Positions 4,653 through 37,136 of a DNA stretch of 38,813 nt are shown here, one piece after another. The translations under genes were made by a program, and so were the position numbers. The notes below the pieces were generated by a model. That model worked only from the letters and a program-made list of their open reading frames with translations, searched no databases and was not told where the DNA came from. The DNA is from an uncultured Bacilli bacterium (GTDB lineage Bacteria; Bacillota_I; Bacilli_A; RF39; UBA660). Position 1 is the first letter of the stretch. The number at the start of each line of letters is the position of its first letter. The stretch covers positions 1 to 38,813 of the forward strand of contig CASDHD010000001.1 of NCBI GenBank assembly GCA_949280095.1, read 5' to 3'.

Positions 4653-5105
4653 ATGAAAATGGAAAATAAAAATGAAATAATTTTGTTTGAAAATCAAAGG
4701 GTAAAATTAGAAGTAAATATGAAAGATGAGACAGTCTGGTTGAATCGAGAACAATTGGCACAATTGTTCGATAGAGATATTAAGACTATTGGTAAACATA
4801 TTCATAATATTTTAAATGAGGAATTAGATAGTTCAGTTGTCGCAAAATTTGCGACAACTGCTAGTGATGGTAAAACTTACCAAGTTGATTATTATAATTT
4901 AGATATGATTATTAGCGTTGGGTACCGTGTAAAATCACAAAATGGTGTTGTCTTTAGACGATGGGCTAATCAAATATTGAAAGACTATATGATTAAAGGA
5001 TATGCTGTTAATCACCAAAGACTAGCAATGCTTTCAAGAACAGTTACACTATTAGATATAGCGAATAGGAGCAATGAACGTATTACTGCAGATGAAGCAA
5101 TTTAG
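4653..5105 (+). CDS. RhuM-family protein, N-terminal domain only (probably truncated)
   Basis: The sequence matches my recollection of the conserved RhuM N-terminal region: WLNREQLAQLFDRDIKTIGKHIHNI...YNLDMIISVGYRVKSQNGVVFRRWANQILKDYMIKGY. At 150 aa it is far shorter than full-length family members. Confidence 0.6.
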   Translation: MKMENKNEIILFENQRVKLEVNMKDETVWLNREQLAQLFDRDIKTIGKHIHNILNEELDSSVVAKFATTASDGKTYQVDYYNLDMIISVGYRVKSQNGVVFRRWANQILKDYMIKGYAVNHQRLAMLSRTVTLLDIANRSNERITADEAI

Positions 5106-5136
5106 TGATGAATTTTTTGGTATAGAAGGGGGTATT

Positions 5137-6186
5137 ATGAATAATTTGTTAGAAAAAACTAGTAAAAATGAAGATAAGTTATTAAATGAATTATATACAG
5201 AAATATCTTCTATTATTACTAAAAATAAAGAAAAGATGGTGTATCAAATTAATGATACATTGGTAAATACTTATTTTTTGATTGGAAAAGTGATAGTAGA
5301 GAATGACCAAAATGGGAATATACGTGCCGAATATGGCAAAGAGTTACTTAAGAAATTGTCTAAAAGATTAACAGAAAAATTTGGTAGTGGTTTTAGTATT
5401 TCAGGATTGTATAATATGAGACTTTTTTATACTAAGTATAAAAATTTCCAACCACTGGCTGGAAATTTGAGTTGGAGTCATTATTGTTATTTAATATATA
5501 TAGAAGATGATGATGAACGAGCGTTTTATGAAAAAGAATGTATTAATTCAAAATGGTCTAAAAGAGAGTTAAAACGGCAGATTGATTCTTCATTATTTCA
5601 ACGTTTATTACTTTCAAAAGGAAATACGAATAAGAAGAAAGTTTATGAATTAGCAAAACGAGGTCAAACTCTTCAAAATCCAATTGATATTTTAAGAGAA
5701 CCTTATGTTTTTGAATTTTTAGGAATTTCAGAAAATAAAAAAATATTAGAAAGTGATTTAGAAAAAAATTTAATCAATCATCTATCAAGTTTTTTAATGG
5801 AACTTGGTAAAGGATTTATGTATGTTGGTAATCAATCAAGAATTACTTTGGATAATAATACGCATTATTATGTAGATTTAGTATTTTATAATAAAATTCT
5901 TAGATCGTATGTATTAATTGATTTAAAGATAGATGATATGAAGCCAGAGTATGTAGGGCAAATGAATATGTATGTCAATTATTATAATAATGAAATTAGA
6001 GATGAATTTGATAATGAAACTATTGGTATTATTCTTTGTAAGGGAAAAAATGAAGTGACAATGGAATATGCCCTAGGAGGATTATCTAATCATGTATTTG
6101 CATCAACTTATACGTATTATATTCCAAATAAAGAACAACTCATTAATGAAGTAGAAAAAGTTTTATACGAGGAGGAAATAGAATGA
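5137..6186 (+). CDS. DUF1016/YhcG-family PDDEXK nuclease-like protein
   Basis: ATG 5137 follows gaaggggg. Motifs: LSWSHYCYLI, the WSKRELKRQI helix, and a C-terminal core YYVDLVFYNKILRSYVLIDLKIDDMKPEYVGQMNMYVNYY (D..D/ExK-like). Its stop overlaps the pheS start (ATGA at 6183-6186). Confidence 0.7.
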   Translation: MNNLLEKTSKNEDKLLNELYTEISSIITKNKEKMVYQINDTLVNTYFLIGKVIVENDQNGNIRAEYGKELLKKLSKRLTEKFGSGFSISGLYNMRLFYTKYKNFQPLAGNLSWSHYCYLIYIEDDDERAFYEKECINSKWSKRELKRQIDSSLFQRLLLSKGNTNKKKVYELAKRGQTLQNPIDILREPYVFEFLGISENKKILESDLEKNLINHLSSFLMELGKGFMYVGNQSRITLDNNTHYYVDLVFYNKILRSYVLIDLKIDDMKPEYVGQMNMYVNYYNNEIRDEFDNETIGIILCKGKNEVTMEYALGGLSNHVFASTYTYYIPNKEQLINEVEKVLYEEEIE

Positions 6187-10554: not shown

Positions 10555-13500
10555 ATGAAAAAAAGAATAATGAATGTAATTGCCCTTTTAATGTTTTTAA
10601 TGTTTTCAGTTCAAAATGTATCAGCAAGTTCTTCTATGGATACTAATTTAACTTCTAGTAGCATAGAATTAAAATCGAATGAAACTGTCGAAGTGACATT
10701 TTCTTTTTCTAATTTTAGAGAAATAAACAAAGGGATTAATGCTTATAAAGGAACGCTAGAATATGATAAAAATATCTTTGAGGAAGTGCTTCAAAGTGAT
10801 TTTGTAAGTCAAAATAATTGGGAAGAATTAAAGTTCAATGCAGCAAATAATCAGTTTATTGCTTATCGAAAAGTAGGAACAAAAGTAGGAGAAAATGTCT
10901 TAAAGTTTACTTTAAAAGTAAAAGATAATGTAGAAGCTACTAAAACGATTGTTAAAATAAAAGATTTAACGGTTTCAGAAGGTAAAGTCGATATTTTACT
11001 AAGTGATGCTTTAGTAGAATTAAATATTGTAAAAGAGCAACAAACTATCCCAACTACTCCAACTGCTCCTAATAAACCAAATGCAGGAGGAACAATTAAC
11101 AATAGTACTAATATTTCAGGAAGTTTATCAGGAAATAAAGTAGAAACTAATACACCAACAAATCCTGATTATCCAAAAGATGATATAAAAAACGATGAAA
11201 CACAAGATGAAACATCTAGTGATAAAAATAATGGTTTTGATGTTTCAAAGGAGGAAACAACTCCGAACACAGAAGAAATCCAAGCTAAAAAAACATCACA
11301 TAAATTCACGTGGATTCTTATTCTTATTTTAGCTCAACTTCTTATTGTAATTGGGTTGTATTTGAAGTACAAATCTAAAGATAAAAATAGAACAATCAAT
11401 TTGTCTTTATGGGTTTTAGGTTTTATACTAACAGAATTTATGGGTATTACAGGTGCTTATGCTTATGATTTTTCGAAAAAAGGGGAATTAAATGGGGATT
11501 CTGAAATCAACTATGCAGATGTGAGTTTATTAGAGTTACATTTAATTAATTTAAAAACTTTAGAGGAAGATAAATTGGAAAAAGCTGACATGAATATGGA
11601 TGGAAAGCTTAACGTAACGGATTTAAGTATTTTAATTCAAAAAATTGAAAATACATTAGAGTATGATGTTGAAATAGCAAGTTTAGAACTTGATAATGCT
11701 TATCCAAATAAAATGGAAGATGTAGTCGTAAGATTTAATGCAGATGTAAGTTTTGGAGCTAATATTCAAAAAATTATAATGAATAACCAAGAATATGAAG
11801 TGGAAAAAGAACCAAATACTGCTCTTTATATGATAAAATTAAATGCTGGTGAACATCCTGGAGTAAAAGAATATACCATTACAGAAGCATTATTAGATAA
11901 TGATAAGAAGGTAAAAATTAATTATACCTTTAAAATGGACGTGTTAAAAGACAAACCAAGTATTGAAAATTATTATGTAGAAGAAAATAAAGATGATTCT
12001 AAATTAATCTTAAACTTCGATGTGATTGACTATGAAAATAGTATACAATCGGCTTATGTAGAGTTTTACGATGAAAGTCAAACTTTGATTACCCAAGAAG
12101 CAATAGTCAAAGGAAAAAATCAAATTGAGTTTTCTGTTGAAGAGGCAAAAGAATATCTTGCTAACATTATCTTGAATTATAAATTAAGTAGTTCTGAAGA
12201 AGATGATGAGCATAAAGGTGTAGAATCTTATGAAAAAGAATTACAATTATTGATTGATTATAACCTTACTATTCAAAACATAAAAACTTATAAAGGAAAT
12301 CAAGAAACAACTGTCTTTAGTAAAGAAGATAAAGTAAAACTTATATTTGAAAGTACCAATGCTACAAAACATATTCCGAAATCTATAAAAGTGGGTGGAA
12401 AAGAATATGAGGTTGTAGAAGAAAACAATCAATATGTAGCAGAACTAGATCCTTTAGCAGAATTAGGTAGTCAAACGATTGCCATTGAGGAAGTGATTCT
12501 TTCTAATGGGAAAAAAATAGAATTGAACGAAAATAATACTGTAACTATTCAAGTAAATAAAAGAAAACCAGTTGTAGAGGATTTATCAACAGCAGAATTT
12601 ACTGAAATGAACAAATTGAAAGTTATGTTCCATTTAGACGATTTGGATGAAGCAGTAACAAATGTTTATATCCAAGTGCTAGATGCTTCAGATAATGAAA
12701 TAGATCATTTGAATTTGGCTAGAAATGAACTTGGAAGTGATGGAATCGTCAATAAATTTTTCACAACAAGAATGACAACAAAGTACAAAGTAAAAGTATT
12801 TTTAACTTATAATATAACGGGAAATGATGTGGATTCTGTTACTGATGAACTTGTAAAAGAAGAAATAGTAGAAGCTGATCCAAGAGTAGAAATCAAAAGT
12901 ATAATAGCAAATAGCAAATATGTAGAAAAAGGTGGAGTTTTAAAATTAACTTTTGATTTAGATAGTAACAAAGAAGATGATATTACAAGAATACTTATTA
13001 ATAATATCGACTGTATTGCTGTAAAATTAGACAATGGAAATTATGAAGCTACATTAAATGTTGGAAATTCGAGCGGAATTTATCCACTATCCATTACAAG
13101 GTTTACTTATAGTAATGGTGATGTTGCAACAACAGACGAAACTGTTAATGTCGAAGTATTAAAAGACAAACCGCAAATTGTAAATTTTGTCCAAATAGAT
13201 AATTTAGATACAAAAGAAGTGACTTTAAGGTTTGATGTTTTGGATGAGGAAAATAGTTTCATAAGTGGAAAAGCATTATTGAATCTTGATGGAATTTCAG
13301 TAGAAAAAGACATAGTAAAAGGACATAATGAGGTTACTTTCCAAGTAGAACCATCTACTAAATACACTTTAAAAATAAATGCAACTTATGATTTAGATAG
13401 TAATACTTTACCTGGAAGTCCTGAAGAAGATAATAGAGTGATCGATGAGACTCTTACAACAAAGGAAGTTGAGTTAATTCTTGATTATGAATTAAATATT

Positions 13501-16500
13501 AGAAATATTAAAACTTATAATGAAAATGGTACAACTAAATACTTTAATAAATATGAGCCTATAATAGTAAGCTTTGAAAGTACGAACACAACAAATTTCG
13601 AACCAATAAAGGCTGTTATTAATGGTGTTCTGTATCCTTTAACTAAAAAAGACAATGCTTACTATTTAACAATAAGTAGTGAAAGAACTTATGGAGTGAA
13701 AACAGGAAGACTAGAAAAAATTATATTAAGTAACTCAAAAGAAATCATTATTTCAGAGAATAATGAATTTAGACTTACTGTTCTAAAAGATAAACCAACA
13801 GTAGAACAATTTGGTTACAAAGAAAATATAGATGCTACAATATCTGCTTCATTTAAAGTAATAGATTTAGAAAATACAATAACAGGTGGAAAAGCTATAG
13901 TCCTTAAAAATGGTACTATTGTTAAAGAACAAGCTTTAGAAAATGGTCTAAATACAATTACTTTCATGCCAGAAGAAAATCAAAATTATATAGTTAAAGT
14001 AATAGCAGATTATGACTTAGATATGAACGTATTAGAAAGTGATGCCAATGAATATCATGATGTAACTTTGCTAGAAGCCGATATTACACTTGGAGCTCGT
14101 AAGTTTGAAATGAAAGACATCATTAGAACATCTATTTATAAACAAACGGATGATGGTGTTGTTGAAATAAGCAATTTAAGTGAAAGCGACCTTTCTAATT
14201 TAGACCAATATATTGCTAAAGTATACATGAAAGAAATGCCAACATTCTATACTAAAATAAATGGTTATAGAATAGAAGATAACCAATTAATATTAACTTT
14301 AGATTATGATAATGTTGTAGAATATAATGGTGAATCTAAAGTAGATGCCTTAGAAATTGTTTATGGTGCTATAAACGATGAGGGAGTAGCTGAAAATATT
14401 ACTTTGGAAGGATTAATTCGTGCGATGGAACAAAATCCAACAGGTACGTTTACGCTAACTCGTGACTATGATGCTTCTATTATTACAAGCAATGATATTA
14501 GTTTAGTTTCATCTTTTATGGGAACCTTAAACGGAAATGGTTATACAATACATAATTTATCTAAACCTTTATTTGGCACAATCGAATCAGCCACTATTGA
14601 AAATCTTATTTTAGATAGTCCAAAACTATCTGGAGTAAATAGTAGAGGAACAATCGCCAATACGGCAATGAATTCAACTATTTATAATGTTCATATAAAA
14701 GATTTAAACTTAATTAGTGGAACCAATCGTGTCGGTGGATTAATTGGAGAAGCTACGGCAACTACGTTTGACCAAAGTAGTGTTACGAATTTCCAAATCA
14801 CAACTTCTCTTCACATAAGAGTTGGTGGAATCGTTGGAAATATGACAGGTGGAGCAATTACCAATTGTTATGTAGAAGGAGATTTAAAATCAACTCAAAA
14901 TAAAGACGGAAATGGTATTAGTGGAGTTTTAGGAACTGGTGATGGAACAGACGTAATCACAATTGAAAACTGTATTACGAAAGTAACGTATACAAATAAT
15001 GTTAGTGCAAGACTAAATGGAGATATCGTAGGATTAGCATTAAATAATAACACAATCTTAAAAAATAATGTAAGTTTATCAACAGGAACTAATTTTTATA
15101 GCGTACATGGTTCTTCTATTAATTCATTATCTACTAATAACTATGAACTTGCTGATTCTGGATTAGTAAGTAATGCAAGTGGTGCTTATGTATCTCAAGT
15201 TACCAAAGAAGAACTTACAACTGAATTCTTTAAAAATACAGCAAATTTTGATGAAAATATTTGGGATTTATCTAATGTTTCCTATGATAAACCACCTGTC
15301 TTAAAAGTTACCGAAGTAGATGGAGAAGTAATAGATGAGGAAAGTTCAAACAATAATAAACTTTATATTCCAGATTATAGTAGAATAAGTAAAATAAGTG
15401 GATATACTATTTCTAAAGATATTCTATATCATAATATAAACAAATTAATGCCTTACTATGATGCAAAATACTTAATTGAAGATGGTCTAAAAATAAGCAA
15501 TGACCACGAATTAAATTCTAAAATAATAAAACATATCTTACCATATAGTAATAATAAATTAGTAACTTATTTGACAAGTCAAAATAATAACAGTATTACA
15601 AGTATAAAAATTGTATTTGATGATCAAACTACAAGTCAATATAACGTAACATTTAAAGAATTAAAACAAGATATTTCTATTTATGAAATAGAAGGATTAG
15701 GCATAGATTATGCTTACAATAACTATGTTATAAAAGATTCTGCATCTATTGTTGATGTAATTATAGACTACATAAATAGTGTTGATTACACAACTATCCT
15801 TGACCCACTTACTACTGCTGCAGATAGTAGGTTATACAAAGACCATTATAACGAAGTAATGAAACCACTTGCAGAAACAATTGCTCTACAACTATTACAA
15901 AATGATGGCAATAGTATACTAAACATGGATAGCGAACTTTTAAATAACAAGATAAAACAAGAACTAATCGATAGTGGTAGATTAGACAAAATCTTATACG
16001 CTTACAATTACTACCATAGATGGTACCATTTTGAAATAGGTGGAGCAAAAGTATCAGATCTTCTATTCTTTGAAGGAAAAATGTACAAAGACTCTATGAC
16101 GATTGACAACTTAACAGAAGAAGTACTAACAGGAAATTTAGGAACCAACGCAACACATACATTCTTCGCAAATAGTTTAAGTAAATATACAGGAAGTTCT
16201 GCCTTAACTTATTATCTAGATGGTGTAATCAGAAATATCGGTGGATATGAAGATATAAATGACTGGTTTACAGAACATTTCTCTTCCATCGGAATTTTAG
16301 CAGAAATACCAGTGGAAAATCATCCAGAAGTAAAATACCGTGCATGGGATAGATTAAAAGGGTTTCAAAACTTTATCCTTCCGTTATCAACATTACCAAA
16401 ATATGCAGGATATATTATATCAGGACCAGCCCAATTCCAAGTGGGGGCACAAAGAGTTTACATTGCCGATCCAACAACGGCATCTGGCCAAAATACGGTA

Positions 16501-19185
16501 AAAAATCATGTAAAAAATCATGTTGCTCTTATTAAAAGACAATTTGATACCATGGCTGGATCTTTCCATGTTGAAAGTTGGAATAACTTCACTATTATGG
16601 TTTATGATACAGTAAAAACGATTACAGGATACAAAACAAATTATTTCCCAGGAACAAATATTCCAATGGGAACCTCTCCTGTTACAACATGGAATAGAAG
16701 TGGAACGACAACGGAACCATTCTCTAAAAACTTCAATGAAGCGGTAGGAGCATGGCAATATGGTTCCGCAGCAGGTGTTGGTAATACTGCAGGATTCTTA
16801 TGGTTTATTGCAAGACCAGGACTAACAAACTACGATACTTGGACCCATGAATTTGAACATGCCCTTTACGATAAAATTATGTTGTTTAGAAAAGGGGCAA
16901 GATTACAACTAGAAACATATACAGAAGGAAATGTTCAGCAAAAAGAAACTTGGAGTAACAATAATATTAGTGGTTACGATGTCGGACCTTATTACTTCAA
17001 TTTTGCCTTTACCTTAGGAAAAGAAAGTATGGCAACCCAAAATTTAACACCAGAAAGAATTAATACGAGAGAAAAATTAGAAAATTATTTTAAAGGCCAA
17101 TTTGACGCCTTAGAACTTCTAGATTATGTTTCAGCGAAAGCATTCATTCAATTAACTCCAGAAGAACAAGCAAAAATCGCAACAAGAATGAATACATCGG
17201 CTGGTTGGAGTACATGGGGAACCATTACGAAAGAACAAGCCGAAGCCATGAACTTAACAACGTTAGAATCCCTTTGGGATAATCGAATTATGTTAAGACC
17301 GAATAATGCATGGGGAGTGAGTGTTCGAGGACTTGTACCAATCAACAGTATTGGTGCCAATGATTATGGTTATGAATCCATTTGGGTAACCCGTTGGTAT
17401 ATGGGGCATTACGACAATGGATATGCAGATGCGTTCTCCAATAAGAAAAACATGTTTGAAATGTTAGGCTATGCTGGAGTCGATGGTTATGTAACCTTTG
17501 GTAGTAAAATGAGTAGTTCTGATTTAGACGCCATTCAAAAAATAACACTCGCCAAAACAGGAACCGCCATGAACTGGAAAGAATACAGAATGAGTCGCTA
17601 TGCGGAAATTGAATCTAAACTTGATAACAAATATGTCAACATTGATTTAATGATTGAACAATTTGTCGATGCTTTAAGAAATGATGCAAAAAATGGCAAT
17701 CGAAACATTACAAGCGGAACCAATCTTCGTAAGATTTACTATCATTACTTAAAAAGAGTCACCAATGACTTTATAGATGACCCACTAGGAACCAACTTAG
17801 AAATGACACATATTAAAACGGCTGAAGAATTAGTAAATAAAATCAATGCAGAACCTTATGGATATTACATATTAGACAATGACATTGACTTTAGCGGAAT
17901 GACTCAAAATGTAACGCAAACATTTATGGGAAAACTAGATGGAAATGGTCATAAAATTATAGGAAATAAAATACCAATCTTCCAAAAAATTCGTTTTGGA
18001 TATGTAAAAGACTTAGTACTTGAAAGAACAGACATTCCAATGAATATAGCAAACGTGGGAGCCTTATCAGTAAGAACCGAATACAGTGTATTAGAAAACG
18101 TAAAAGCCAAAGAACTACAACTAAACTTTGGTGGAAGAAATGATGTAAGTTTAATTGGAGGATCTGTTGGAACAACTGTTACTAGTGGAATTGAAGTAGA
18201 AACCTTAAAAAATAAGATAACCAGTATAGAAGATTTCCAAAAATTAAATGAGAATCCGGGTGGTATCTACGTTTTAGAGGCAGATTTAGATTTCACAGGT
18301 TACACAGGAACTGGTTCAGTAATTACTACAACATTTACTGGAAAACTAAATGGAAATGGACATACCCTTTCCAACTTAAATAACTTATCATTATTTAATA
18401 CGATAACAGGAACTGTCGAAAATTTAAATATTCAAAACTTTACGAATATCGCTACATCTACTAGTGATGATATTTCGGCTTTTGCGAAACTTACAAACGG
18501 TGCTACAATTAGAAACTTGAAGTTTGACGGTATTACTTTAGAAGGAAGACATAGAGTAGCAGTTGTTGCATCATTTGATAATCAAAATTCTACATTTGAA
18601 AATATTTCTGTTAGAAATGCTAGTGTTAAAGCTACAGGTGTATATGTTTCAACGTTTATTGGTCGAAAATATGGTGGTACTGTCAAAAATGTATTTGTTG
18701 CAGGAAGTATCGAAATCGTCATGACCGAGAATGGTGGAATTGTTGGAGCTTTCCAAAAAGGTGGAACGATTGAGAATGTTATTTCAAAAGTTGATATTCA
18801 TAAAACTGGAAATACTTATAGTCCTGTTGCTAATAGTGAATTTAATGGTGGATTAATAGGAAATATTTATGATACACCAATGATTAAGAATTCTATAGCT
18901 TTAGGTAATATGGAAGGATTTGTAGATAGTGAAGGTGTAGAAAAAATTCCATATAAAGTAACAGGAGCTTTACCAGCTACGATTACTGCTACGATGGATA
19001 ATGTTTATGAATATTTAGGAAGTCTTGGATTCAGTAGTGTTACAGAAGAAACTTCAACAAGTTTAAAAGTTGTAACGGAAGAAGAAATTCATACAAAAGA
19101 ATTTTATCGAGATACATTACATTTTGATGAGACTATTTGGAATTTAGAAACTATAGAATCTAAGGGATATCCAGAGTTGAAATAA
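10555..19185 (+). CDS. Giant cell-surface ZmpA/ZmpB/ZmpC-like (peptidase M26) zinc metalloprotease with N-terminal cohesin-like and dockerin modules
   Basis: Signal peptide MKKRIMNVIALLMFLMFSVQNVSA. Cohesin-like N-terminal domain and Pro/Thr linker. Two TM helices (WILILILAQLLIVIGLYL and LWVLGFILTEFMGITGAYA). Dockerin type I duplicated Ca-loops (NGDSEINYADV and NMDGKLNVTDL). Four diverged roughly 200-aa repeat modules, each starting VLKDKP or NKRKP. GLUG-like VGGLIG/VGGIVG and G(T/K)LNGNG(Y/H) motifs. HEFEH zinc site at 16846-16860. Confidence 0.8.
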   Translation: MKKRIMNVIALLMFLMFSVQNVSASSSMDTNLTSSSIELKSNETVEVTFSFSNFREINKGINAYKGTLEYDKNIFEEVLQSDFVSQNNWEELKFNAANNQFIAYRKVGTKVGENVLKFTLKVKDNVEATKTIVKIKDLTVSEGKVDILLSDALVELNIVKEQQTIPTTPTAPNKPNAGGTINNSTNISGSLSGNKVETNTPTNPDYPKDDIKNDETQDETSSDKNNGFDVSKEETTPNTEEIQAKKTSHKFTWILILILAQLLIVIGLYLKYKSKDKNRTINLSLWVLGFILTEFMGITGAYAYDFSKKGELNGDSEINYADVSLLELHLINLKTLEEDKLEKADMNMDGKLNVTDLSILIQKIENTLEYDVEIASLELDNAYPNKMEDVVVRFNADVSFGANIQKIIMNNQEYEVEKEPNTALYMIKLNAGEHPGVKEYTITEALLDNDKKVKINYTFKMDVLKDKPSIENYYVEENKDDSKLILNFDVIDYENSIQSAYVEFYDESQTLITQEAIVKGKNQIEFSVEEAKEYLANIILNYKLSSSEEDDEHKGVESYEKELQLLIDYNLTIQNIKTYKGNQETTVFSKEDKVKLIFESTNATKHIPKSIKVGGKEYEVVEENNQYVAELDPLAELGSQTIAIEEVILSNGKKIELNENNTVTIQVNKRKPVVEDLSTAEFTEMNKLKVMFHLDDLDEAVTNVYIQVLDASDNEIDHLNLARNELGSDGIVNKFFTTRMTTKYKVKVFLTYNITGNDVDSVTDELVKEEIVEADPRVEIKSIIANSKYVEKGGVLKLTFDLDSNKEDDITRILINNIDCIAVKLDNGNYEATLNVGNSSGIYPLSITRFTYSNGDVATTDETVNVEVLKDKPQIVNFVQIDNLDTKEVTLRFDVLDEENSFISGKALLNLDGISVEKDIVKGHNEVTFQVEPSTKYTLKINATYDLDSNTLPGSPEEDNRVIDETLTTKEVELILDYELNIRNIKTYNENGTTKYFNKYEPIIVSFESTNTTNFEPIKAVINGVLYPLTKKDNAYYLTISSERTYGVKTGRLEKIILSNSKEIIISENNEFRLTVLKDKPTVEQFGYKENIDATISASFKVIDLENTITGGKAIVLKNGTIVKEQALENGLNTITFMPEENQNYIVKVIADYDLDMNVLESDANEYHDVTLLEADITLGARKFEMKDIIRTSIYKQTDDGVVEISNLSESDLSNLDQYIAKVYMKEMPTFYTKINGYRIEDNQLILTLDYDNVVEYNGESKVDALEIVYGAINDEGVAENITLEGLIRAMEQNPTGTFTLTRDYDASIITSNDISLVSSFMGTLNGNGYTIHNLSKPLFGTIESATIENLILDSPKLSGVNSRGTIANTAMNSTIYNVHIKDLNLISGTNRVGGLIGEATATTFDQSSVTNFQITTSLHIRVGGIVGNMTGGAITNCYVEGDLKSTQNKDGNGISGVLGTGDGTDVITIENCITKVTYTNNVSARLNGDIVGLALNNNTILKNNVSLSTGTNFYSVHGSSINSLSTNNYELADSGLVSNASGAYVSQVTKEELTTEFFKNTANFDENIWDLSNVSYDKPPVLKVTEVDGEVIDEESSNNNKLYIPDYSRISKISGYTISKDILYHNINKLMPYYDAKYLIEDGLKISNDHELNSKIIKHILPYSNNKLVTYLTSQNNNSITSIKIVFDDQTTSQYNVTFKELKQDISIYEIEGLGIDYAYNNYVIKDSASIVDVIIDYINSVDYTTILDPLTTAADSRLYKDHYNEVMKPLAETIALQLLQNDGNSILNMDSELLNNKIKQELIDSGRLDKILYAYNYYHRWYHFEIGGAKVSDLLFFEGKMYKDSMTIDNLTEEVLTGNLGTNATHTFFANSLSKYTGSSALTYYLDGVIRNIGGYEDINDWFTEHFSSIGILAEIPVENHPEVKYRAWDRLKGFQNFILPLSTLPKYAGYIISGPAQFQVGAQRVYIADPTTASGQNTVKNHVKNHVALIKRQFDTMAGSFHVESWNNFTIMVYDTVKTITGYKTNYFPGTNIPMGTSPVTTWNRSGTTTEPFSKNFNEAVGAWQYGSAAGVGNTAGFLWFIARPGLTNYDTWTHEFEHALYDKIMLFRKGARLQLETYTEGNVQQKETWSNNNISGYDVGPYYFNFAFTLGKESMATQNLTPERINTREKLENYFKGQFDALELLDYVSAKAFIQLTPEEQAKIATRMNTSAGWSTWGTITKEQAEAMNLTTLESLWDNRIMLRPNNAWGVSVRGLVPINSIGANDYGYESIWVTRWYMGHYDNGYADAFSNKKNMFEMLGYAGVDGYVTFGSKMSSSDLDAIQKITLAKTGTAMNWKEYRMSRYAEIESKLDNKYVNIDLMIEQFVDALRNDAKNGNRNITSGTNLRKIYYHYLKRVTNDFIDDPLGTNLEMTHIKTAEELVNKINAEPYGYYILDNDIDFSGMTQNVTQTFMGKLDGNGHKIIGNKIPIFQKIRFGYVKDLVLERTDIPMNIANVGALSVRTEYSVLENVKAKELQLNFGGRNDVSLIGGSVGTTVTSGIEVETLKNKITSIEDFQKLNENPGGIYVLEADLDFTGYTGTGSVITTTFTGKLNGNGHTLSNLNNLSLFNTITGTVENLNIQNFTNIATSTSDDISAFAKLTNGATIRNLKFDGITLEGRHRVAVVASFDNQNSTFENISVRNASVKATGVYVSTFIGRKYGGTVKNVFVAGSIEIVMTENGGIVGAFQKGGTIENVISKVDIHKTGNTYSPVANSEFNGGLIGNIYDTPMIKNSIALGNMEGFVDSEGVEKIPYKVTGALPATITATMDNVYEYLGSLGFSSVTEETSTSLKVVTEEEIHTKEFYRDTLHFDETIWNLETIESKGYPELK

Positions 19186-31333: not shown

Positions 31334-31514
31334 AATTTTATATTTATAGGTTGTGGATATTATGCAAGTAAGTAGGAATAGTAATTTGAAAATTCCCAAA
31401 CATATAGAAATTGCGGAAACTGAAATAAATAGTTTAGAAGATAAAATAGCTGTGAGGCAAGGTATTGCGATAGCGAATGATGAAAAAATTCGTAAGGAAT
31501 TTTTAAAAGATGAG

Positions 31515-31989
31515 ATGGACATAGAAGATAAAGAATGGAAAGAAATAGAAAAAATTCCTTCTAATGCTAATGATTTAATTGCTATAACTGTTGTGAAAAA
31601 ATTAGGGGCTTATGTTATTGCAGTAACGGAAAAATCACCTAAAAAATTTCGCGGCTTATGTTATTGCAGTAACGGAAAAATCACCTAAAAAATTTCGCGG
31701 AGTGTTTGTGAATAGAATGCAAAATTATTGTTTGGATACATTAGAACTTTTACTAGAGGCTAATTTTATTCGTATAGACTCTAAAGATAATAAAACAAAA
31801 AGAGAGGAGTTGCAAAAGGAAGCTATTGTAAAATTAAAGCTTCTAGGATATGTTGCTATGGTTTCTCTAAATGCTTCTTGTATTTTGACTAGACAGTATA
31901 AGCAAATATCTATGCAACTTGCAAAAGCAATCAATCTTATCATTGCTTGGAAAAAAAGCGATGATGAAAGGTTTAAAAAAAGAAATTAG
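31515..31989 (+). pseudogene. avd: DGR accessory variability determinant (Avd, four-helix-bundle / 23S rRNA-IVS-like protein), frameshifted by a 46-bp tandem duplication
   Basis: The two ORFs 31353..31688 (frame 0) and 31702..31989 (frame +1) fuse in frame if one 46-bp copy is removed. The fused product is ...DLIAITVVKKLGAYVIAVTEKSPKKFRGVFVNRMQNYCLDTLELLLEAN...LAKAINLIIAWKK... This resembles the Bordetella Avd pattern (..SIPRKHGVAREMFLKCLLGQVELFIVAG...ILGSWI.., quoted from memory). The start at M55 (31515) is a guess; the frame is open from 31353. Confidence 0.7.
31607..31698 (+). repeat. Perfect 46-bp tandem duplication inside avd
   Basis: ggcttatgttattgcagtaacggaaaaatcacctaaaaaatttcgc at 31607-31652 is repeated exactly at 31653-31698, followed by a further gg. 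46 is not a multiple of 3. Confidence 0.95.
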
Positions 31990-32061: not shown

Positions 32062-32141
32062 CGCCCGCGCTGTTAACTAAAATGGAAATAGAAATTGGAA
32101 CAATGTTAATAAACGTACTGGTGGGGCTCGCCCAGATTCAC
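32062..32141 (+). repeat. DGR template repeat (TR)
   Basis: 80 bp align without gaps to 33619-33698. Of 19 mismatches, 17 are at TR adenines. It is a GC-rich island in AT-rich sequence, has 7 AAY codons in the VR frame, and lies between avd and the RT. Confidence 0.9.
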
Positions 32142-32276
32142 TTTTGAAGAGATTTTTAATAAATCTAGAAAACGGATTCGAGAAATTTATTTTAGAAAAA
32201 ATAGGTCTATATCTTAAGGTGAAGGAATTTTCTTCTTTTCTATTCGCTATGAATTTATGCGTTTAGAAGAATATAA

Positions 32277-32338
32277 AAACACCTACACAAACAACGGATA
32301 TTTTATTCTTTGTGCGTTATAAGAGGTGTTTATTTTTT
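32277..32338 (+). promoter_or_regulatory. Structured hairpin plus U-tract in the TR-RT spacer, immediately before the RT RBS
   Basis: aaacacct (32277-32284) pairs with aggtgttt (32324-32331). There is an inner cacaaa/tttgtg helix. tttttt lies at 32333-32338, then GGAGG at 32339-32343 and ATG at 32349. Confidence 0.45.
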
Positions 32339-32348
32339 GGAGGATTTT

Positions 32349-33269
32349 ATGAAATTAGAAGAGATTTTCACCTTTGAAAATTTATACCGAGCATATAAAA
32401 AATGTCGCAAAGGAAAGCAACATAAAGGAGAGGTTATTCGTTTTGAAACAAATCTATCAGTTAATTTAAGTAATATTAGAAGTGAATTGTTAAGTAAAAC
32501 ATATAAACTTGGAAAATATAAGAAATTTTATATTTATGAGCCAAAAGAAAGGCTTATTGAAGCATTGCCTTTTAAAGATAGAGTAGTTGTTCGATGTTTT
32601 TGTGATACTTCATTACGTCCTAAACTTGAAAAAAAACTAATATTTGATAATTGTGCTTGTCGTAAAGAAAAAGGAACACATTTTGCTATTCAAAGGTTGC
32701 ATCGCTTTTTAAGAAAAGAATTTAAAATAGAACAAAACAATCATTTTTATTTTTTAAAATGTGATATCAAAAAATTTTTTCCTAGTATCCATCATGATAT
32801 TTTATTAAATCTTTTAAAGGAAGTTGATTTTTCAGTGGAAGAAATGTGGCTAATAAAAAAACTTGTCAAAGACCAACCTGACAAAGCAAATATTGGACTT
32901 CCTTTAGGTAATCAGTCTAGTCAATGGTTTGCTTTATTTTATTTGAATAAAGTGGATCATTTTATTAAGGAAAAATTACAGATAAAATCTTACGTTCGTT
33001 ATATGGATGACATGATTTTGCTTCATAAAGATAAAGAAGTTTTAAAAAGATGTAAAACAGAAATTGAAATAATGATTAAAGATTTATTAGAATTAGAATT
33101 GAATTCTAAAACACAGATTGGACAAGTTAAAAATGGAATTGATTTTTTAGGATATCGCCATATCATGAAAGAAAAAGGAAGAATTATTATAAAATTAAGG
33201 GCTTCTTCTAAACATAGAATGAAAAAACACATTAAAACAATTCATAAGCTTATAAAAAAGGAATTGTAG
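32349..33269 (+). CDS. DGR-type reverse transcriptase. As written the frame stops at 33269; the C-terminal segment continues in the -1 frame to 33388.
   Basis: GGAGG lies 5 nt upstream of ATG 32349. RT motifs: PKERLIEALPFKDRVV, DIKKFFPSI, LGNQSSQ (the DGR-specific [LIV]GxxxSQ) at 32904-32924, YMDD at 33000-33011, and FLGY. Confidence 0.9.
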   Translation: MKLEEIFTFENLYRAYKKCRKGKQHKGEVIRFETNLSVNLSNIRSELLSKTYKLGKYKKFYIYEPKERLIEALPFKDRVVVRCFCDTSLRPKLEKKLIFDNCACRKEKGTHFAIQRLHRFLRKEFKIEQNNHFYFLKCDIKKFFPSIHHDILLNLLKEVDFSVEEMWLIKKLVKDQPDKANIGLPLGNQSSQWFALFYLNKVDHFIKEKLQIKSYVRYMDDMILLHKDKEVLKRCKTEIEIMIKDLLELELNSKTQIGQVKNGIDFLGYRHIMKEKGRIIIKLRASSKHRMKKHIKTIHKLIKKEL

Positions 33270-33388
33270 ATGGAAAGTATGTGTCAATAAGAAAGAATGC
33301 TTTTTCTAACCATATTAAGCATACGAACGAATCTTCTCATTGGAAAGAGGAAATTTTTTCCAAAATGGATGAAACTGTGATAAAATAA
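33254..33388 (+). other. -1-frame continuation encoding the missing RT C-terminal (thumb-end) segment. The junction is an A_AAA_AAG heptamer.
   Basis: Zero frame: ...ctt atA AAA AAG gaa ttg tag. The -1 frame from 33254 reads KKGIVDGKYVSIRKNAFSNHIKHTNESSHWKEEIFSKMDETVIK*. Its HxxH(T/A)(N/D) pattern resembles my recollection of the C-terminal ..SWLGHARHADT.. region of the Bordetella phage RT. Confidence 0.6.
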
Positions 33389-33412
33389 AATTAAGAACAT
33401 TGGTGATTTTGT

Positions 33413-35491
33413 ATGAGTAATTTAACATTTTTAACAGAGGAACAAATCTTCGGAAAAAGTTGTCTAGAAATATTTAATAAATATGGTACAGAATGTGCAA
33501 TTACAGATTTCTCTATTCTTTTAGGAGGATATGTATCGAATTTTTGTTATACTAGTGAAGGAGATTCGCAAGAAAATCGTACTGGTTGGTGGTGGACTAA
33601 GACACCTTATGGAAATAACGCCCGCGTTGTTGACTGGCCTGGACTTAGGCGTTGGAGCGATGTTGATAGGCGTGCTGGTGGGGCTCGCCCAGCTTTACCT
33701 TACTCAGTAATCCAATCCATCTCCTCGAACAGAGTGAGAGGGACTAATGGTATTTTGGAAGTAGAGTATGGAGAATATCCACAAACTATAGTTCCAGAAT
33801 CACTTTCAAATTTGTTAGAACAAAATTTTCAATATAAAACACTCACAAAGACTGGAAAAGAGTATATTACAGATTCTGTACAGTGTGATTGTTATTCTAC
33901 TTCTTTTCAACCACGAAACCATATTGAGTTTAGTTATAAAGGAAAAAAATTCATTCGCTTTGTAGCAGATTTAAATTGTGAGGATAGAAATTTGTCCGAT
34001 GGCCGTCAGGTGAAAGTTGGTAGTCCTTATTGGATAGAAGTAGAACCTATTAAATGGTTAATTTCTGAGAAAGAAAATATAGCAGTTTGTAAAAAAATTA
34101 TTTTTGCAGGAGTTCAATTTAATCAAGAGCAAAATTATAAAGGGAATTTTGAGAATACCGATATTTATAAATTTTTAGAAAATTGTTTTTCGAAAGATAT
34201 AGAAGCTATTAACATCAATACACCTTTAGAAAATAAAGAAACAAAACCAACCCGCTTACAAAAAATGAATCCTGATACGACCAAAGTAAATGAACGAAGA
34301 AATATGACGGCAACAGAAAAAATTCAAGATTGGATCGAATCAGGGCAATCTGTTTTGCTGCGTGGACCCTCTGGTATCGGAAAAACAGAAAGACTGAAAA
34401 CTTTGTACCCAGATTTAATTTATATCAAACTAACAAACAATATGTTTCCAGAAAAAGTAGTAGGGTCGATGAATTTCCAAACGGGACAAAACATTCCTCC
34501 TGATTTCTATAAACAAGCAATGCTCGATTGTGCAACTCCAGAAGAACAAAAATTAATCAAAGAAAATGTCCAAAATTTGTATGACTTAGCAGATAAAATT
34601 TATGAACGATCAAAAGAAAGCAAAGGAAAAATTGTCATCTTGCTCGATGAACTTTTAAATGTGACACCTGCGGTTCAATCTCTGGTCTATACCTTAGTAC
34701 TAAATCGACTAGTAGAAATAGGAAAGGGTTTGAAATTACCTGAAAATGTGGTAGTGGTAGCAACAGGAAACCAAAAAAAATACTCTATTGTAGCAAAAGA
34801 CATAGCAGAACCTCTTGAAAAACGTTTTGATCATATTTTTGATATGGAGCCAAAAGTAGGAGAATGGTTATATGACTATGCGATTCCTAATAAAATTCAT
34901 CCTTCTGTTATTGGTTTTATTATGTCCAAGTATTTAAGTACAGGAAAAAGTGAAGAAATAAAAGATATGGGATACTTCTATGAAGAACCAGAAATTGGAG
35001 AAATGCATCCTGATAAATATGGTTGTAATGGAAGAACCAATGACCCCAGAGGATGGGTATCCATATCCAATACACTGTATAAGTTTGAAAAAAACTTACA
35101 AACAGGCAAATACATAGGAAAAAATGTGGAAAATATATTAGAAACTTCTATAAATACCAAATTGCGTTCTGAGTGGGCAAGTGCTTTCTTTAACTTTTAT
35201 AATTTACCTACTTTATCTGTCAAAGAAGTCGTAGAAAAAAACTATGGAGAGAGTGCTTTACCAAAAACGAGCAACGAACGATTTGCGACTCTTACTTCTC
35301 TTTTAATGGCAAACAAAGACGAAATAAAAGCATGTAGAGAATTTGTAAGAAACTATTGTGATCCTGAATTTTTAGAACTCTATGACTTCTGTTGGATAGG
35401 CAAAGATATAGCAAGAATGGAAAAAATTATGGAGTTAAAATCATTAGAAAATAATGTAGAACTTCCAAGTGAAAGGAGAGCAATGGCGTGA
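33413..35491 (+). CDS. DGR target: cytoplasmic protein with an N-terminal VR-bearing ligand-binding-like domain fused to a MoxR/AAA_5-type AAA+ ATPase
   Basis: No signal peptide or TM helix. N-terminal WWWTKTP...ARVV...GGARPAL motif resembles DUF1566/DUF6273-type (C-type-lectin-fold-like) modules. The VR covers codons 70-96. Walker A GPSGIGKT at 34364-34387, Walker B IVILLDE, and PENVVVVATGNQ. Confidence 0.85.
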   Translation: MSNLTFLTEEQIFGKSCLEIFNKYGTECAITDFSILLGGYVSNFCYTSEGDSQENRTGWWWTKTPYGNNARVVDWPGLRRWSDVDRRAGGARPALPYSVIQSISSNRVRGTNGILEVEYGEYPQTIVPESLSNLLEQNFQYKTLTKTGKEYITDSVQCDCYSTSFQPRNHIEFSYKGKKFIRFVADLNCEDRNLSDGRQVKVGSPYWIEVEPIKWLISEKENIAVCKKIIFAGVQFNQEQNYKGNFENTDIYKFLENCFSKDIEAININTPLENKETKPTRLQKMNPDTTKVNERRNMTATEKIQDWIESGQSVLLRGPSGIGKTERLKTLYPDLIYIKLTNNMFPEKVVGSMNFQTGQNIPPDFYKQAMLDCATPEEQKLIKENVQNLYDLADKIYERSKESKGKIVILLDELLNVTPAVQSLVYTLVLNRLVEIGKGLKLPENVVVVATGNQKKYSIVAKDIAEPLEKRFDHIFDMEPKVGEWLYDYAIPNKIHPSVIGFIMSKYLSTGKSEEIKDMGYFYEEPEIGEMHPDKYGCNGRTNDPRGWVSISNTLYKFEKNLQTGKYIGKNVENILETSINTKLRSEWASAFFNFYNLPTLSVKEVVEKNYGESALPKTSNERFATLTSLLMANKDEIKACREFVRNYCDPEFLELYDFCWIGKDIARMEKIMELKSLENNVELPSERRAMA
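33619..33698 (+). repeat. DGR variable repeat (VR), within codons 70-96 of the target gene
   Basis: See the TR entry. The 3' 18 bp CTGGTGGGGCTCGCCCAG (33675-33692) is identical to TR 32118-32135, an IMH-like GC-rich element. Confidence 0.9.
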
Positions 35492-35877
35492 AAAAAGAAC
35501 TAATCGAATTGCAATTTGGTAGTTGTGCTACTTGTGTTGTTATTTTAGATGAATATTATAAAGAATTAGGACCTACTATTTTCATGGAAGGAAATATGAG
35601 TGATACAAACTTATACGCTTGTTCCTATGAAAATCCTATATTTAAAGAAAAATTAGAAACGATGGCGAAAAACTACGAGCAAGTTTATTTTGTCATTCGA
35701 CATATAGAACAAATTACAGAAGTAGAGCAAAATAGGTACATTGCCCTTGTAAAAGATAGAGAGTTTTGTGGATTTCAAATTCCTGATAATGTAGTAGTAG
35801 TGTTTACCGTTGGAGAAGAAATGGATATAAAGAAAATATCCAAAGAACTCTATCATTTCTGTGTAATAGCAATATAA
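35488..35877 (+). CDS. Small cytoplasmic protein, possibly a degenerate Walker-less AAA+ fragment
   Basis: GTG 35488 overlaps the target stop (GTGA), with aaaggagag 9 nt upstream. VYFVIRHIEQITEVEQNRYIALVKDREFCGFQIPDNVVVVFTVG aligns with the Walker B to sensor-1 stretch of the upstream ATPase. Confidence 0.6.
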   Translation: MKKELIELQFGSCATCVVILDEYYKELGPTIFMEGNMSDTNLYACSYENPIFKEKLETMAKNYEQVYFVIRHIEQITEVEQNRYIALVKDREFCGFQIPDNVVVVFTVGEEMDIKKISKELYHFCVIAI

Positions 35878-35885
35878 GGTGACGC

Positions 35886-37136
35886 ATGAATATAGAGAAG
35901 AATCTAATTGAAGAAACACTTAAGATTATTATTATACGTTATTCAGAGTTTGCAAGTGAAATTGCCTCCTGTAAATTCGAGTATCGTACCGATTTAAAAT
36001 ACAAAACTGCTGCAACAGACGGAAAAGATGTCTTTATAGATCCAGAATATTTTACAAGTTTAGATGAAGAAGGAAGAGCCTTTTTACTAGCACATGAACT
36101 AATGCATAAAAAGTTTTTGCACCATCTGCGAATCGAAAAAAATGGTGTAAAAAGAGATCCAGAAGTCTGGAACGAAGCCACCGATGCTGTAAATAATGCC
36201 AACTTAGAGCGTGATGGATTTAAAATTGCGGAAGGGTATATCAATCGCCCTGAAGCACTTCACTATTCAGCAGATGAGTTTTATGAAATCTTATTAAAAG
36301 AAAAACAAGAAAATCCAAACAAAAAAGAATATACGCATTGCGATGACCATACCCTTTGGGAAGAAGTGCCAAAAAATACAAAAGAAATTCCAGAAATTGA
36401 TGAAAGAAAAGAATTTGCAGAAAACAGAAGAATCCGTATGGAAAAAGCAAAAGAAAACTATGAACGCCTGAAAGAAGAAATCTTAAAAAAAGAATCCTCA
36501 AGCGAAGAAGTAAAAGTAGGAGACATTGGAGAAAGTGCGTCCCCTATAGATTGGAAAATTTTAGTTAGAAGAGAATTTGATAAGCAAGAAACGCTTTGGA
36601 GTAGGAGAAGAAGTATAGAAGAAAATAACTATGCGTATCGTTTAGAAGAAATAGACAGAGAAGATGAAGCAGAAACAGAAGTATTAATTGATATTTCAGG
36701 GTCTGTCAGCTTAGATTTAATAAGAGCCTTCTTAAGAAATTTAAAGCCACTTATTAAAGAATCAAAATTAAAAGTAGGTTGTTTTAATGAAAAATTCTGG
36801 GGGATGGTAGAAATAAAATCAGTGCGTGATATCGATCAGTTCGTATTGCCAAAAGGTTCAACTGTGGGGGCTTGGACACAAGATTGTGACCTTGCGGTTC
36901 GTTCTTTTTCAAAAAAAAGAGAAGTCAACAAATTTATTTTTACAGATGGTTATCTTGTACCTAGAAATATGCCTAGAAAAGATTTAAATAATGAAAATGT
37001 AATATGGCTTGTTTATGGAAATAAAAACTTCAAACCTTGTTGTGGAAAAGTTATTTTTATTAATGAAAAACAATTAAAAGCAATGTATTGTTATCAAGGA
37101 TATACAGATACAAATAGCCAGTCTAGATTTATTTAG
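35886..37136 (+). CDS. Predicted metallopeptidase (DUF2201_N-like HExxH) fused to a vWA domain; the MoxR partner protein
   Basis: RBS aaggtga. TAATDGKDVFIDPEYF, HELMH at 36093-36107, WNEATDAVNN, MIDAS DISGS at 36690-36704, and FTDGY. Confidence 0.8.
   Translation: MNIEKNLIEETLKIIIIRYSEFASEIASCKFEYRTDLKYKTAATDGKDVFIDPEYFTSLDEEGRAFLLAHELMHKKFLHHLRIEKNGVKRDPEVWNEATDAVNNANLERDGFKIAEGYINRPEALHYSADEFYEILLKEKQENPNKKEYTHCDDHTLWEEVPKNTKEIPEIDERKEFAENRRIRMEKAKENYERLKEEILKKESSSEEVKVGDIGESASPIDWKILVRREFDKQETLWSRRRSIEENNYAYRLEEIDREDEAETEVLIDISGSVSLDLIRAFLRNLKPLIKESKLKVGCFNEKFWGMVEIKSVRDIDQFVLPKGSTVGAWTQDCDLAVRSFSKKREVNKFIFTDGYLVPRNMPRKDLNNENVIWLVYGNKNFKPCCGKVIFINEKQLKAMYCYQGYTDTNSQSRFI

Follow-up and report, generated by a model that had tools for sequence, protein, structure and literature searches.

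We analysed a 38.8-kb stretch of contig CASDHD010000001.1 from an uncultured Bacilli bacterium (38,813 nt; hereafter, the window) and found in it a diversity-generating retroelement (DGR) with a template repeat (TR), a variable repeat (VR), an avd gene, a reverse transcriptase (RT) gene and a large target gene. That the element is a DGR, as proposed in the original prediction from the sequence alone, is virtually certain, since the mismatches between the repeats are adenine-specific, the closest solved structure to the RT is 8ub7_A, the RT carries the LGxxxSQ motif, the Avd protein is recognised by similarity, and the repeats share a GC-rich block at the site of initiation of mutagenic homing (IMH). 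We further consider it very likely that the locus is a canonical chromosomal DGR with the avd-TR-RT core, probably inactivated recently, whose target belongs to a little described class.

The TR/VR pair

The TR and the VR align without gaps over 80 nt (32062-32141 against 33619-33698), and the alignment extends to 83 nt; the TR is short (80-83 nt). Of the 19 mismatches, 17 lie at TR adenines (1 A>T, 5 A>C and 11 A>G), with 17 of the 26 TR adenines altered in the VR; the two non-adenine mismatches are C>T changes at 32070 and 32139. On recount we reproduced all these values, together with the repeat coordinates, as they had been given in the original prediction. An even spread of mismatches over the TR bases, named there as an outcome that would speak against a DGR, was not observed: the hypergeometric probability of at least 17 of 19 mismatches falling on 26 adenines in 80 bases is P = 3.9e-9.

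In the VR frame, the TR reads GCC CGC GCT GTT AAC TAA AAT GGA AAT AGA AAT TGG AAC AAT GTT AAT AAA CGT ACT... and carries seven AAY codons, in agreement with the earlier count. In the same frame it contains a TAA stop codon (32078-32080), at which the VR has TGG; an in-frame stop codon, TAA or TGA, is also found in the TRs of six related loci (L005, L019, L023, L041, L049, L073). An unmutated copy of the TR would truncate the target at this codon, and under adenine mutagenesis TAA would give TNN codons (Y, W, F, C, S, L), which are out of reach for AAY codons.

The 18-nt block CTGGTGGGGCTCGCCCAG is the same in the TR and the VR, and its earlier description as a GC-rich, IMH-like 3' end is borne out: 18-mers with at least 14 G/C are represented in the window (29.7% GC) only by these two copies. 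Immediately 3' of the block the TR has GATTCACTTT, whereas the VR has GCTTTACCTT. The mismatches 32136 A>C and 32139 C>T are fixed differences between the TR-specific end (IMH*) and the VR-specific end (IMH), present in all relatives; since the pair of every relative has the same 3' difference, they are not products of mutagenesis. Thus, the count of 17 adenine mismatches stands, but its reading as mutagenesis does not hold for 32136. After removal of the IMH sites, 16 adenine-templated changes in codons 74-88 and a single C/T difference at 32070 are left. At this site, relatives carry T in the TR as well as in the VR, so that the difference is either a point change in the TR or lies beyond the last homing tract.

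When each TR adenine is replaced by N, the resulting pattern matches exactly two sites in the window, the TR and the VR, with 0 matches expected by chance; as this search yielded no further VR in the window, we conclude that there is one TR and one VR. The DNA fold 3' of the VR, where a hairpin similar to that of Bordetella phage BPP-1 was sought, scored z = -2.74; the hairpin overlaps the variable codons, and we make no claim about it.

Copying of the TR with misincorporation at adenines, followed by replacement of the VR, is established for the BPP-1 paradigm. By analogy, a complex of the RT and Avd would bind the RNA spanning avd, the TR and the spacer, the RT would copy the TR, misincorporating opposite template adenines, and the cDNA would replace the VR. 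The direction of homing would be set by the GC-rich block together with the VR-specific IMH, as opposed to the TR-specific IMH*.

Diversification in related loci

A scan of one genome per species yielded 76 loci, all from gut metagenome-assembled genomes (MAGs) assigned to uncultured Bacilli, 'Tenericutes', Clostridia and Christensenella-like bacteria, with humans, rabbits, ruminants, mice and chickens as hosts. The avd-RT-target arrangement of the window was observed in about 25 of the 76 loci, and the protein collection contained more than 1751 homologues of the target.

In 18 TR/VR pairs of the relatives, 226 of 258 mismatches lie at TR adenines; hence, the lack of adenine bias, which would argue against the DGR identity, was tested for and not found. 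The 3' ends are consistent in all 18 pairs, with ...CCAGATTCAC(T)TT in the TR versus ...CCAGCTTTAC(C)TT in the VR. Three loci (L003, L004, L076) have a near-identical TR, yet each has its own VR; apart from the fixed IMH sites, these VRs depart from the TR only at adenines.

The same is seen at the protein level. In clusters of targets with at least 90% identity, the variation gathers in the VR columns, and among 15 sequences a single column can show as many as 9 different residues. In one such cluster (P0031), 22 pairs of proteins identical outside the VR differ on average at 9.5 of the 16 VR residues. In the sister lineages with intact RTs, the VR changes faster than any other residue. Variation confined to the VR, the population signature that the original prediction had suggested looking for, is thus observed at the protein level in the sister lineages. 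No matches to the VR pattern with N at every TR adenine were found in the JGI metagenome contigs, and exact-protein look-ups of the flanking genes for additional strains led to nothing beyond this same contig and short contigs that lack the VR.

Several loci deviate from the one-TR, one-VR organisation. Two paralogous targets with VRs identical at 93 of 93 positions are present in each of L010, L013 and L037, with no intact RT nearby. A single TR serves two different VRs in L012, L015 and L016, and two VR domains stand in tandem within one protein in P0002 and L025.

Reverse transcriptase and Avd

The RT matches Pfam RVT_1 (E 1.5e-17) and phrog_1423 (E 2e-108), and both motifs noted originally, LGNQSSQ (of the [LIV]GxxxSQ type) and YMDD, were located in its open reading frame (ORF). 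The closest solved structure, 8ub7_A (a 328-aa reverse transcriptase, E 2.2e-41), has a sequence that we take to be that of bRT from BPP-1; among PDB sequences, the matches to group II intron RTs (1e-11) and to retron RTs (about 1e-5) are weaker.

The frame of the RT stops at codon 307, and the intact RT expected of a functional DGR is not found here. The downstream segment in the -1 frame aligns with residues 303-346 of homologous RTs. As all 29 of 29 homologous RTs cross this site in one frame, we conclude that the RT of the window has suffered a 1-nt deletion in ...AAAAAGGGA... The same state is observed in L001, an independent assembly of the same strain differing from the window by one single-nucleotide polymorphism (SNP) in 15 kb, and in L078-L081, a sister strain from four samples. 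The RT of the sister strain, called as a 290-aa protein, has lost a further nucleotide (window position 33199) and, in addition, 3 nt in another deletion. The deletion that broke the RT created the heptamer A_AAA_AAG, a classic slippery site of the -1 type.

The original prediction had placed an Avd-like gene 5' of the TR. With one copy of the 46-nt tandem repeat removed, the avd product has about 193-196 aa and matches phrog_3206 'Avd protein of DGR' (E 9.8e-16), confirming the assignment; the match to NCBIfam NF033474 DivGenRetAVD (E 2.4e-6, 27.8 bits) is under the 80-bit cut-off, and phmmer search against PDB sequences gave no match. An intact avd gene of 193 aa is called in L001 and L078-L081, and the full length, including the N-terminal extension, is kept in about 25 related loci. 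The 46-nt duplication is seen neither in L001, despite the near-identity of the two assemblies, nor in L078-L081; it must have arisen by mutation very recently, unless it is an artefact of assembly. Neither this duplication nor the early stop of the RT frame was noted in the original prediction.

Structured RNA between the TR and the RT

The spacer of about 200 nt between the TR and the RT is conserved far above the expectation for non-coding DNA. In an alignment of 14 loci, the RNAalifold consensus comprises 52 base pairs, with 95.9% of the cells paired; 17 of the 52 pairs change on both sides, compared with 8.4 +/- 1.7 in shuffled alignments, none of which reached 17 (0 of 500), and with 3-6 in slid controls. 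The fold of the single sequence of the TR-spacer region (z = -1.86) is unconvincing alone, hence the need for the comparative analysis. Scanning of the window against Rfam matched no family, the spacer included. Taken together, the conservation and covariation indicate that the spacer is a conserved structured RNA.

One of the helices pairs TTCACTTT (32137-32144, the TR-specific 3' end) with AAGGTGAA (32216-32223), 80 nt downstream; this pairing would explain why the bases at the 3' end of the TR differ from those of the VR. In BPP-1 RNA, pairing between the TR and the spacer sets up priming, and the helix in the window recalls it. Further hairpins are found at 32185-32206 and 32236-32270, and a terminal, terminator-like one at 32277-32331 is followed by a T-rich run directly before the ribosome-binding site of the RT.

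Table 1. Coordinates of the DGR components and of the target operon in the window.
Feature	Position	Strand	Description
avd	31362-31989	+	four-helix-bundle Avd region and N-terminal extension of ~65 aa; two ORFs in this assembly
Tandem duplication	31607-31698	+	perfect, 46-nt, 2 x GGCTTATG...TTTCGC; frameshifts avd into two ORFs
TR	32062-32144	+	GC-rich 5' boundary 32062-32070; adenine-mutagenised part 32075-32117; GC block 32118-32135; IMH* (TR-specific 3' end) 32136-32144
Spacer RNA, TR to RT	32137-32338	+	alignment of 14 loci; RNAalifold consensus
RT, frame-0 part	32349-33269	+	306 aa; ATG 32349, stop 33267-33269; LGNQSSQ 32904-32924, YMDD 33000-33011
Frameshift point	33254-33260	+	1-nt deletion in a homopolymer tract; ancestral ...AAA AAG GGA ATT...; leaves A_AAA_AAG in the zero frame
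RT C-terminal 43 codons	33260-33388	+	GIVDGKYVSIRKNAFSNHIKHTNESSHWKEEIFSKMDETVIK; -1 frame (three-frame translation)
Target gene	33413-35491	+	692 aa; DUF6273-like VR domain aa 1-~100, beta-rich domain aa ~105-260, linker, MoxR-type AAA+ module, conserved C-terminal region
VR	33619-33701	+	target codons 69-96; diversified codons 74-88 (33632-33674); GC block 33675-33692; IMH (VR-specific 3' end) 33693-33701
Partner protein	35488-35877	+	129 aa, conserved; predicted AAA+-like alpha/beta core without a P-loop
Zincin-type metallopeptidase	35886-37136	+	HELMH aa 70 (nt 36093); VWA-like DISGS and FTDG in the C-terminal half

State of the element in this lineage

The VR is identical at the DNA level in six contigs (the window, L001 and L078-L081) and at the protein level in nine, and the TR is also identical across these six. 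At the same time, the target proteins of the VR-identical strains differ at 33 other residues. Thus, the absence of VR variation among contigs gives no sign of ongoing diversification in the lineage of the window, whereas such diversification is seen in the sister lineages. The repeat pair, originally presented as direct evidence of a DGR, is such evidence for past activity, but not for the present one, given the frameshifted RT and the VR constant in nine contigs. We conclude that the element has probably been disabled recently in this lineage, and consider it fairly likely that the DGR is currently inactive or nearly so. If it has been inactivated, this must have happened recently, as the TR and the helices of the spacer RNA have so far remained almost intact.

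Alternatively, the DGR could be fully functional, with the avd duplication being an artefact, the RT being produced by -1 slippage or the 306-aa protein being sufficient, and the VR being constant due to clonality or selection. Several points here weigh against inactivation. The avd duplication, missing from a near-identical assembly, may be artefactual, and avd is intact in both L001 and L078-L081. The heptamer A_AAA_AAG is in the correct zero frame, and a -1 slip on it would restore the ancestral KKGIVD exactly, so that some full-length RT could be made. The TR, the IMH and the spacer helices are intact, with just one non-adenine difference between the TR and the VR outside the IMH. Besides, the species is rare (about 7-9 samples) and the inactivity is deduced from consensus assemblies, in which low-frequency VR variants would be invisible, and little time may have passed, as the strains are ~0.2% apart outside recombination patches and the window and L001 are separated by only 1 SNP in 15 kb. 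However, a frameshift at this site of the RT is used by none of the 29 homologues, the two additional indels in the 3' part of the sister-strain RT are expected in the absence of selection, and the VR has remained the same despite 33 other differences in the target, whereas lineages with intact RTs vary the VR between otherwise identical proteins. Hence, we regard a fully functional element as unlikely.

It is still less probable, indeed very unlikely, that the local RT is dead and the repeats are serviced in trans by an RT and Avd encoded elsewhere in the genome. Many related loci have no RT within 6 kb and yet retain a GC-rich, IMH-like VR boundary (mean 69% GC in genomes with 26-31% GC), which would fit trans action or a recent loss. 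Against trans servicing, there is no VR variation among the contigs, and no second RT is seen in the 38.8 kb of the genome that the window covers; moreover, DGR RNA is normally recognised via its own spacer structure, and an RT acting in trans would presumably have to be a close paralogue. Finally, an ordinary segmental duplication or a gene-conversion tract diverged by AT-biased drift would explain nothing more than a repeat in an AT-rich genome and can be dismissed, since the mismatches are directional, with A in one copy only (at the P-value given above), the adenine-bearing copy is non-coding and lies between avd and a DGR-type RT, the same asymmetry is observed in 18 independent pairs, and the spacer RNA is conserved.

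Signs of decay, in line with a recent inactivation of the window element, are also present in the relatives. A frameshifted RT is found beside the ATPase module in L014, and 5'-truncated RT remnants without avd in L011, L013, L043, L048 and L051; loci that have lost the RT altogether next to this module are common as well. In the closest other species (L002, CANSRH010000022.1, 5873-6100), avd is joined directly to a TR/VR hybrid repeat followed by the target from about codon 69: a clean deletion by TR-VR recombination has taken out the spacer and the RT together with the beginning of the target. DGR decay thus appears to be recurrent in this target family. The locus and its relatives form a clear series of stages of DGR death, from a homopolymer frameshift in the RT through further indels and 5'-truncated RT remnants to recombination between the TR and the VR that deletes the RT and the target start, and this calls for caution with catalogues in which any TR/VR pair is counted as an active DGR.

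One more variable region was considered. The target linker between the N-terminal domains and the ATPase (34153-34477) differs by ~26% between the window and L078-L081, while its flanks are identical. It was rejected as a second VR, as there are indels among the changes and these show no adenine specificity; the region has the look of a recombination patch.

Target protein and its operon

The AAA+ module of the target occupies aa 314-478, with Walker A (GPSGIGKT, aa 318) and Walker B (LLDELL, aa 410), and matches Pfam AAA_5 (24.2 bits with a cut-off of 22, aa 314-472) and the phrog_1297 ATPase (E 3.6e-33). Search of the whole target against PDB sequences by phmmer gave no match, and Pfam models matched neither its C-terminal half nor that of the zincin protein. 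The target is apparently cytoplasmic, as judged by eye from the lack of a signal peptide or transmembrane segment; no predictor was run. Phage proteins annotated as MoxR or ATPase align only to aa ~299-648, with 22-26% identity, and none of them has the N-terminal domain.

The similarity of the N-terminal domain to DUF6273 (19.0 bits, E 0.0013; aa 8-95 aligned with positions 81-168 of the 172-position profile) is under the 23.5-bit threshold, and the homologue P0004 reaches 21.8 bits. An exhaustive search with the first 110 residues of the target returned 583 cluster representatives; an intermediate protein, P0322, matches the window domain with E 4.7e-15 and DUF6273 with 26.3 bits, above the threshold. 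Since the score is sub-threshold and the link goes only via P0322, we consider the VR domain to be a divergent relative of DUF6273 and not its formal member. In the AlphaFold2 (AF2) model of aa 1-290 (pLDDT 89.6), the VR forms a beta-hairpin (strands 69-73 and 79-83) and a loop leading to strand 94-96. Foldseek comparison of this model with PDB and BFVD gave no match below E 0.03.

Domains of this type occur in other contexts as well: 26 stretches of P0211 (6124 aa) match the N-terminal VR-type domain of the window, and other matches are fused to ankyrin, LRR_5 or DUF4116 repeats.

The partner protein of 129 aa adjoins the target in most related loci. Its AF2 model (pLDDT 87.6) has AAA+ cores as the top Foldseek matches (6luf, E 7.5e-4; TMq 0.5-0.59); the Walker A motif GxxxxGK[ST] is absent, and a Walker-B-like ILDE is present. 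The third protein of the operon matches Pfam DUF2201_N (E 1.3e-16) and, over aa 5-395, phrog_1314 (E 1.6e-41); despite the DISGS and FTDG motifs, Pfam VWA models gave no match in its C-terminal half. PADLOC assigned the three proteins of the target operon to no known defence-system model, with weak ATPase matches only. The operon consists only of the ATPase fusion, the 129-aa AAA-like protein and the zincin/VWA-like protein, and does not have the composition that defines the VMAP ternary conflict systems considered below.

Given this architecture, the DGR would vary a ligand-binding surface on each subunit of a presumed ATPase ring, and variation in the VR would retarget recognition by the ATPase and the peptidase, most plausibly toward foreign (phage) proteins. 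As a tentative proposal, which we consider possible rather than probable, the target module might be a DGR-programmable intracellular recognition machine of an undescribed type: a MoxR-type AAA+ ring with one hypervariable lectin-like N-terminal domain per subunit, working with a P-loop-less AAA-like subunit and a zincin-VWA protease, and capturing or processing a changing set of, perhaps, phage proteins. Two considerations weigh against our account of the target. The C-type-lectin fold suggested for the VR domain was not confirmed by Foldseek in PDB and BFVD, and the function proposed for the ATPase/peptidase module derives wholly from its architecture.

Genomic surroundings

The surroundings of the DGR are chromosomal and not those of a prophage: they include genes of the PheRS subunits, histidine kinase and two-component genes, and a series of NAD-pathway genes that closes with an NrtR-like regulator. 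A scan for promoter and terminator consensus sequences gave background-level results. At 10555-19185 of the window, an ORF of 2876 aa combines an M26 IgA1-protease region at its N-terminus with a dockerin domain, and may encode a host-interaction protein. Directly 5' of pheS (4653-6186) lie a fragment of the RhuM family and a gene of a YhcG/DUF1016 PDDEXK nuclease, which may be remnants of a mobile or defence element.

Comparison with known systems

The avd-TR-RT order is the commonest DGR core (architecture B1), in which the placement of the target varies (Wu et al. 2018, PMC5758913). The order avd-TR-RT-target, with the target 3' of the RT, was described correctly in the original prediction; we considered it as an unusual feature and rejected this, since it is the known B1 layout (PMC5758913). 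N-terminal VRs are rare, being reported in 3 of 372 cases (Wu et al. 2018, PMC5758913).

The element closely resembles the DGR of BPP-1 (bAvd-TR-bRT, target Mtd) in the avd-TR-RT core, where the TR separates avd from the RT, the adenine-specific changes and AAY-rich TR, the shared GC block followed by differing IMH and IMH*, the structured spacer RNA after the TR, and the RT closest to 8ub7. It differs in being chromosomal and not phage-borne, in having its target downstream and not upstream of the RT, and in the position of the VR, which is near the N-terminus of a large cytoplasmic ATPase and not at the C-terminus of a tail fibre. Also different are the short TR (80-83 nt) with the in-frame TAA, the Avd with an N-terminal extension of ~65 aa, and the frameshifted RT. 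Thus, the DGR machinery itself is textbook, and it is the target class that may be new: a family of cytoplasmic MoxR-type ATPases with a hypervariable N-terminal domain, which abounds in the gut metagenomes of animals and humans. In the literature, we found no description of a VR domain fused to a MoxR-type ATPase, and the word 'ATPase' is absent from the large DGR survey of Roux et al. 2021.

DUF6273 is a lectin-like domain diversified by DGRs of gut phages, at times N-terminal, as in 'tentaclins' (PMC10743442; bioRxiv 10.1101/2024.10.15.618418; PMC11792537). Similarly to the window, the VR in these DGRs (tentaclins, PMC10743442; the Toutatisvirus hotspot, bioRxiv 10.1101/2024.10.15.618418; Faecalibacterium prophages, PMC11792537) is at the C-terminal end of a DUF6273-type domain, and the hosts are gut Firmicutes; in tentaclins (PMC10743442) the VR is also modelled as a surface beta-hairpin with flanking loops, as in our AF2 model. 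However, the phage targets are virion proteins with Ig-like/Fn3 tails and a role in receptor binding, whereas in the window the domain is fused to a MoxR-type ATPase in a non-phage operon, is under the Pfam threshold for DUF6273, and is linked to the family only via P0322.

The ATPase and the zincin protein are similar to the pair of MoxR and metallopeptidase-vWA proteins of jumbo and rV5-like phages, described as a chaperone pair (Iyer et al. 2021, PMC7824862), with both phrog_1297 (ATPase) and phrog_1314 (partner) being matched in the window. The phage proteins, unlike the target, have no N-terminal VR domain, and no DGR is associated with them.

Also comparable are the DGRs that, in cyanobacteria and gammaproteobacteria, are linked to vWA-MoxR (VMAP) ternary conflict systems (Kaur et al. 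2020, PMC7159879; Dore et al. 2024, PMC10907252). In both cases, a DGR acts on a ligand-binding domain that is lectin-like or, in the window, putatively so, the operon contains a MoxR-type ATPase, a partner that is vWA-type or, in the window, VWA-like, and a peptidase, and the target is predicted to be cytoplasmic; the role proposed for the VMAP systems is the sensing of invaders. In those systems, the VR is at the C-terminus of the vWA (or another) protein and MoxR is encoded by a separate gene, whereas in the window the ATPase itself bears the VR domain as an N-terminal fusion. The window operon, where no dedicated VMAP model was used, shows no VMAP protein, EAD adaptor, or TIR, caspase or trypsin effector, and the peptidase there is a DUF2201_N zincin fused to a VWA-like part. 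To date, links between DGRs, MoxR and vWA are on record from multicellular cyanobacteria and gammaproteobacteria alone, where the domains are arranged differently. If the reading of the target module as a programmable machine is true, DGRs would have been repeatedly gained, crippled and lost beside a widespread module of unicellular gut Bacilli and Clostridia. The hosts of the VMAP systems are multicellular, while the family described here is found in small-genome MAGs of gut Bacilli and Clostridia, and hence, if the target is a sensor, DGR-diversified intracellular antigen sensing would extend from multicellular bacteria to streamlined gut commensals.

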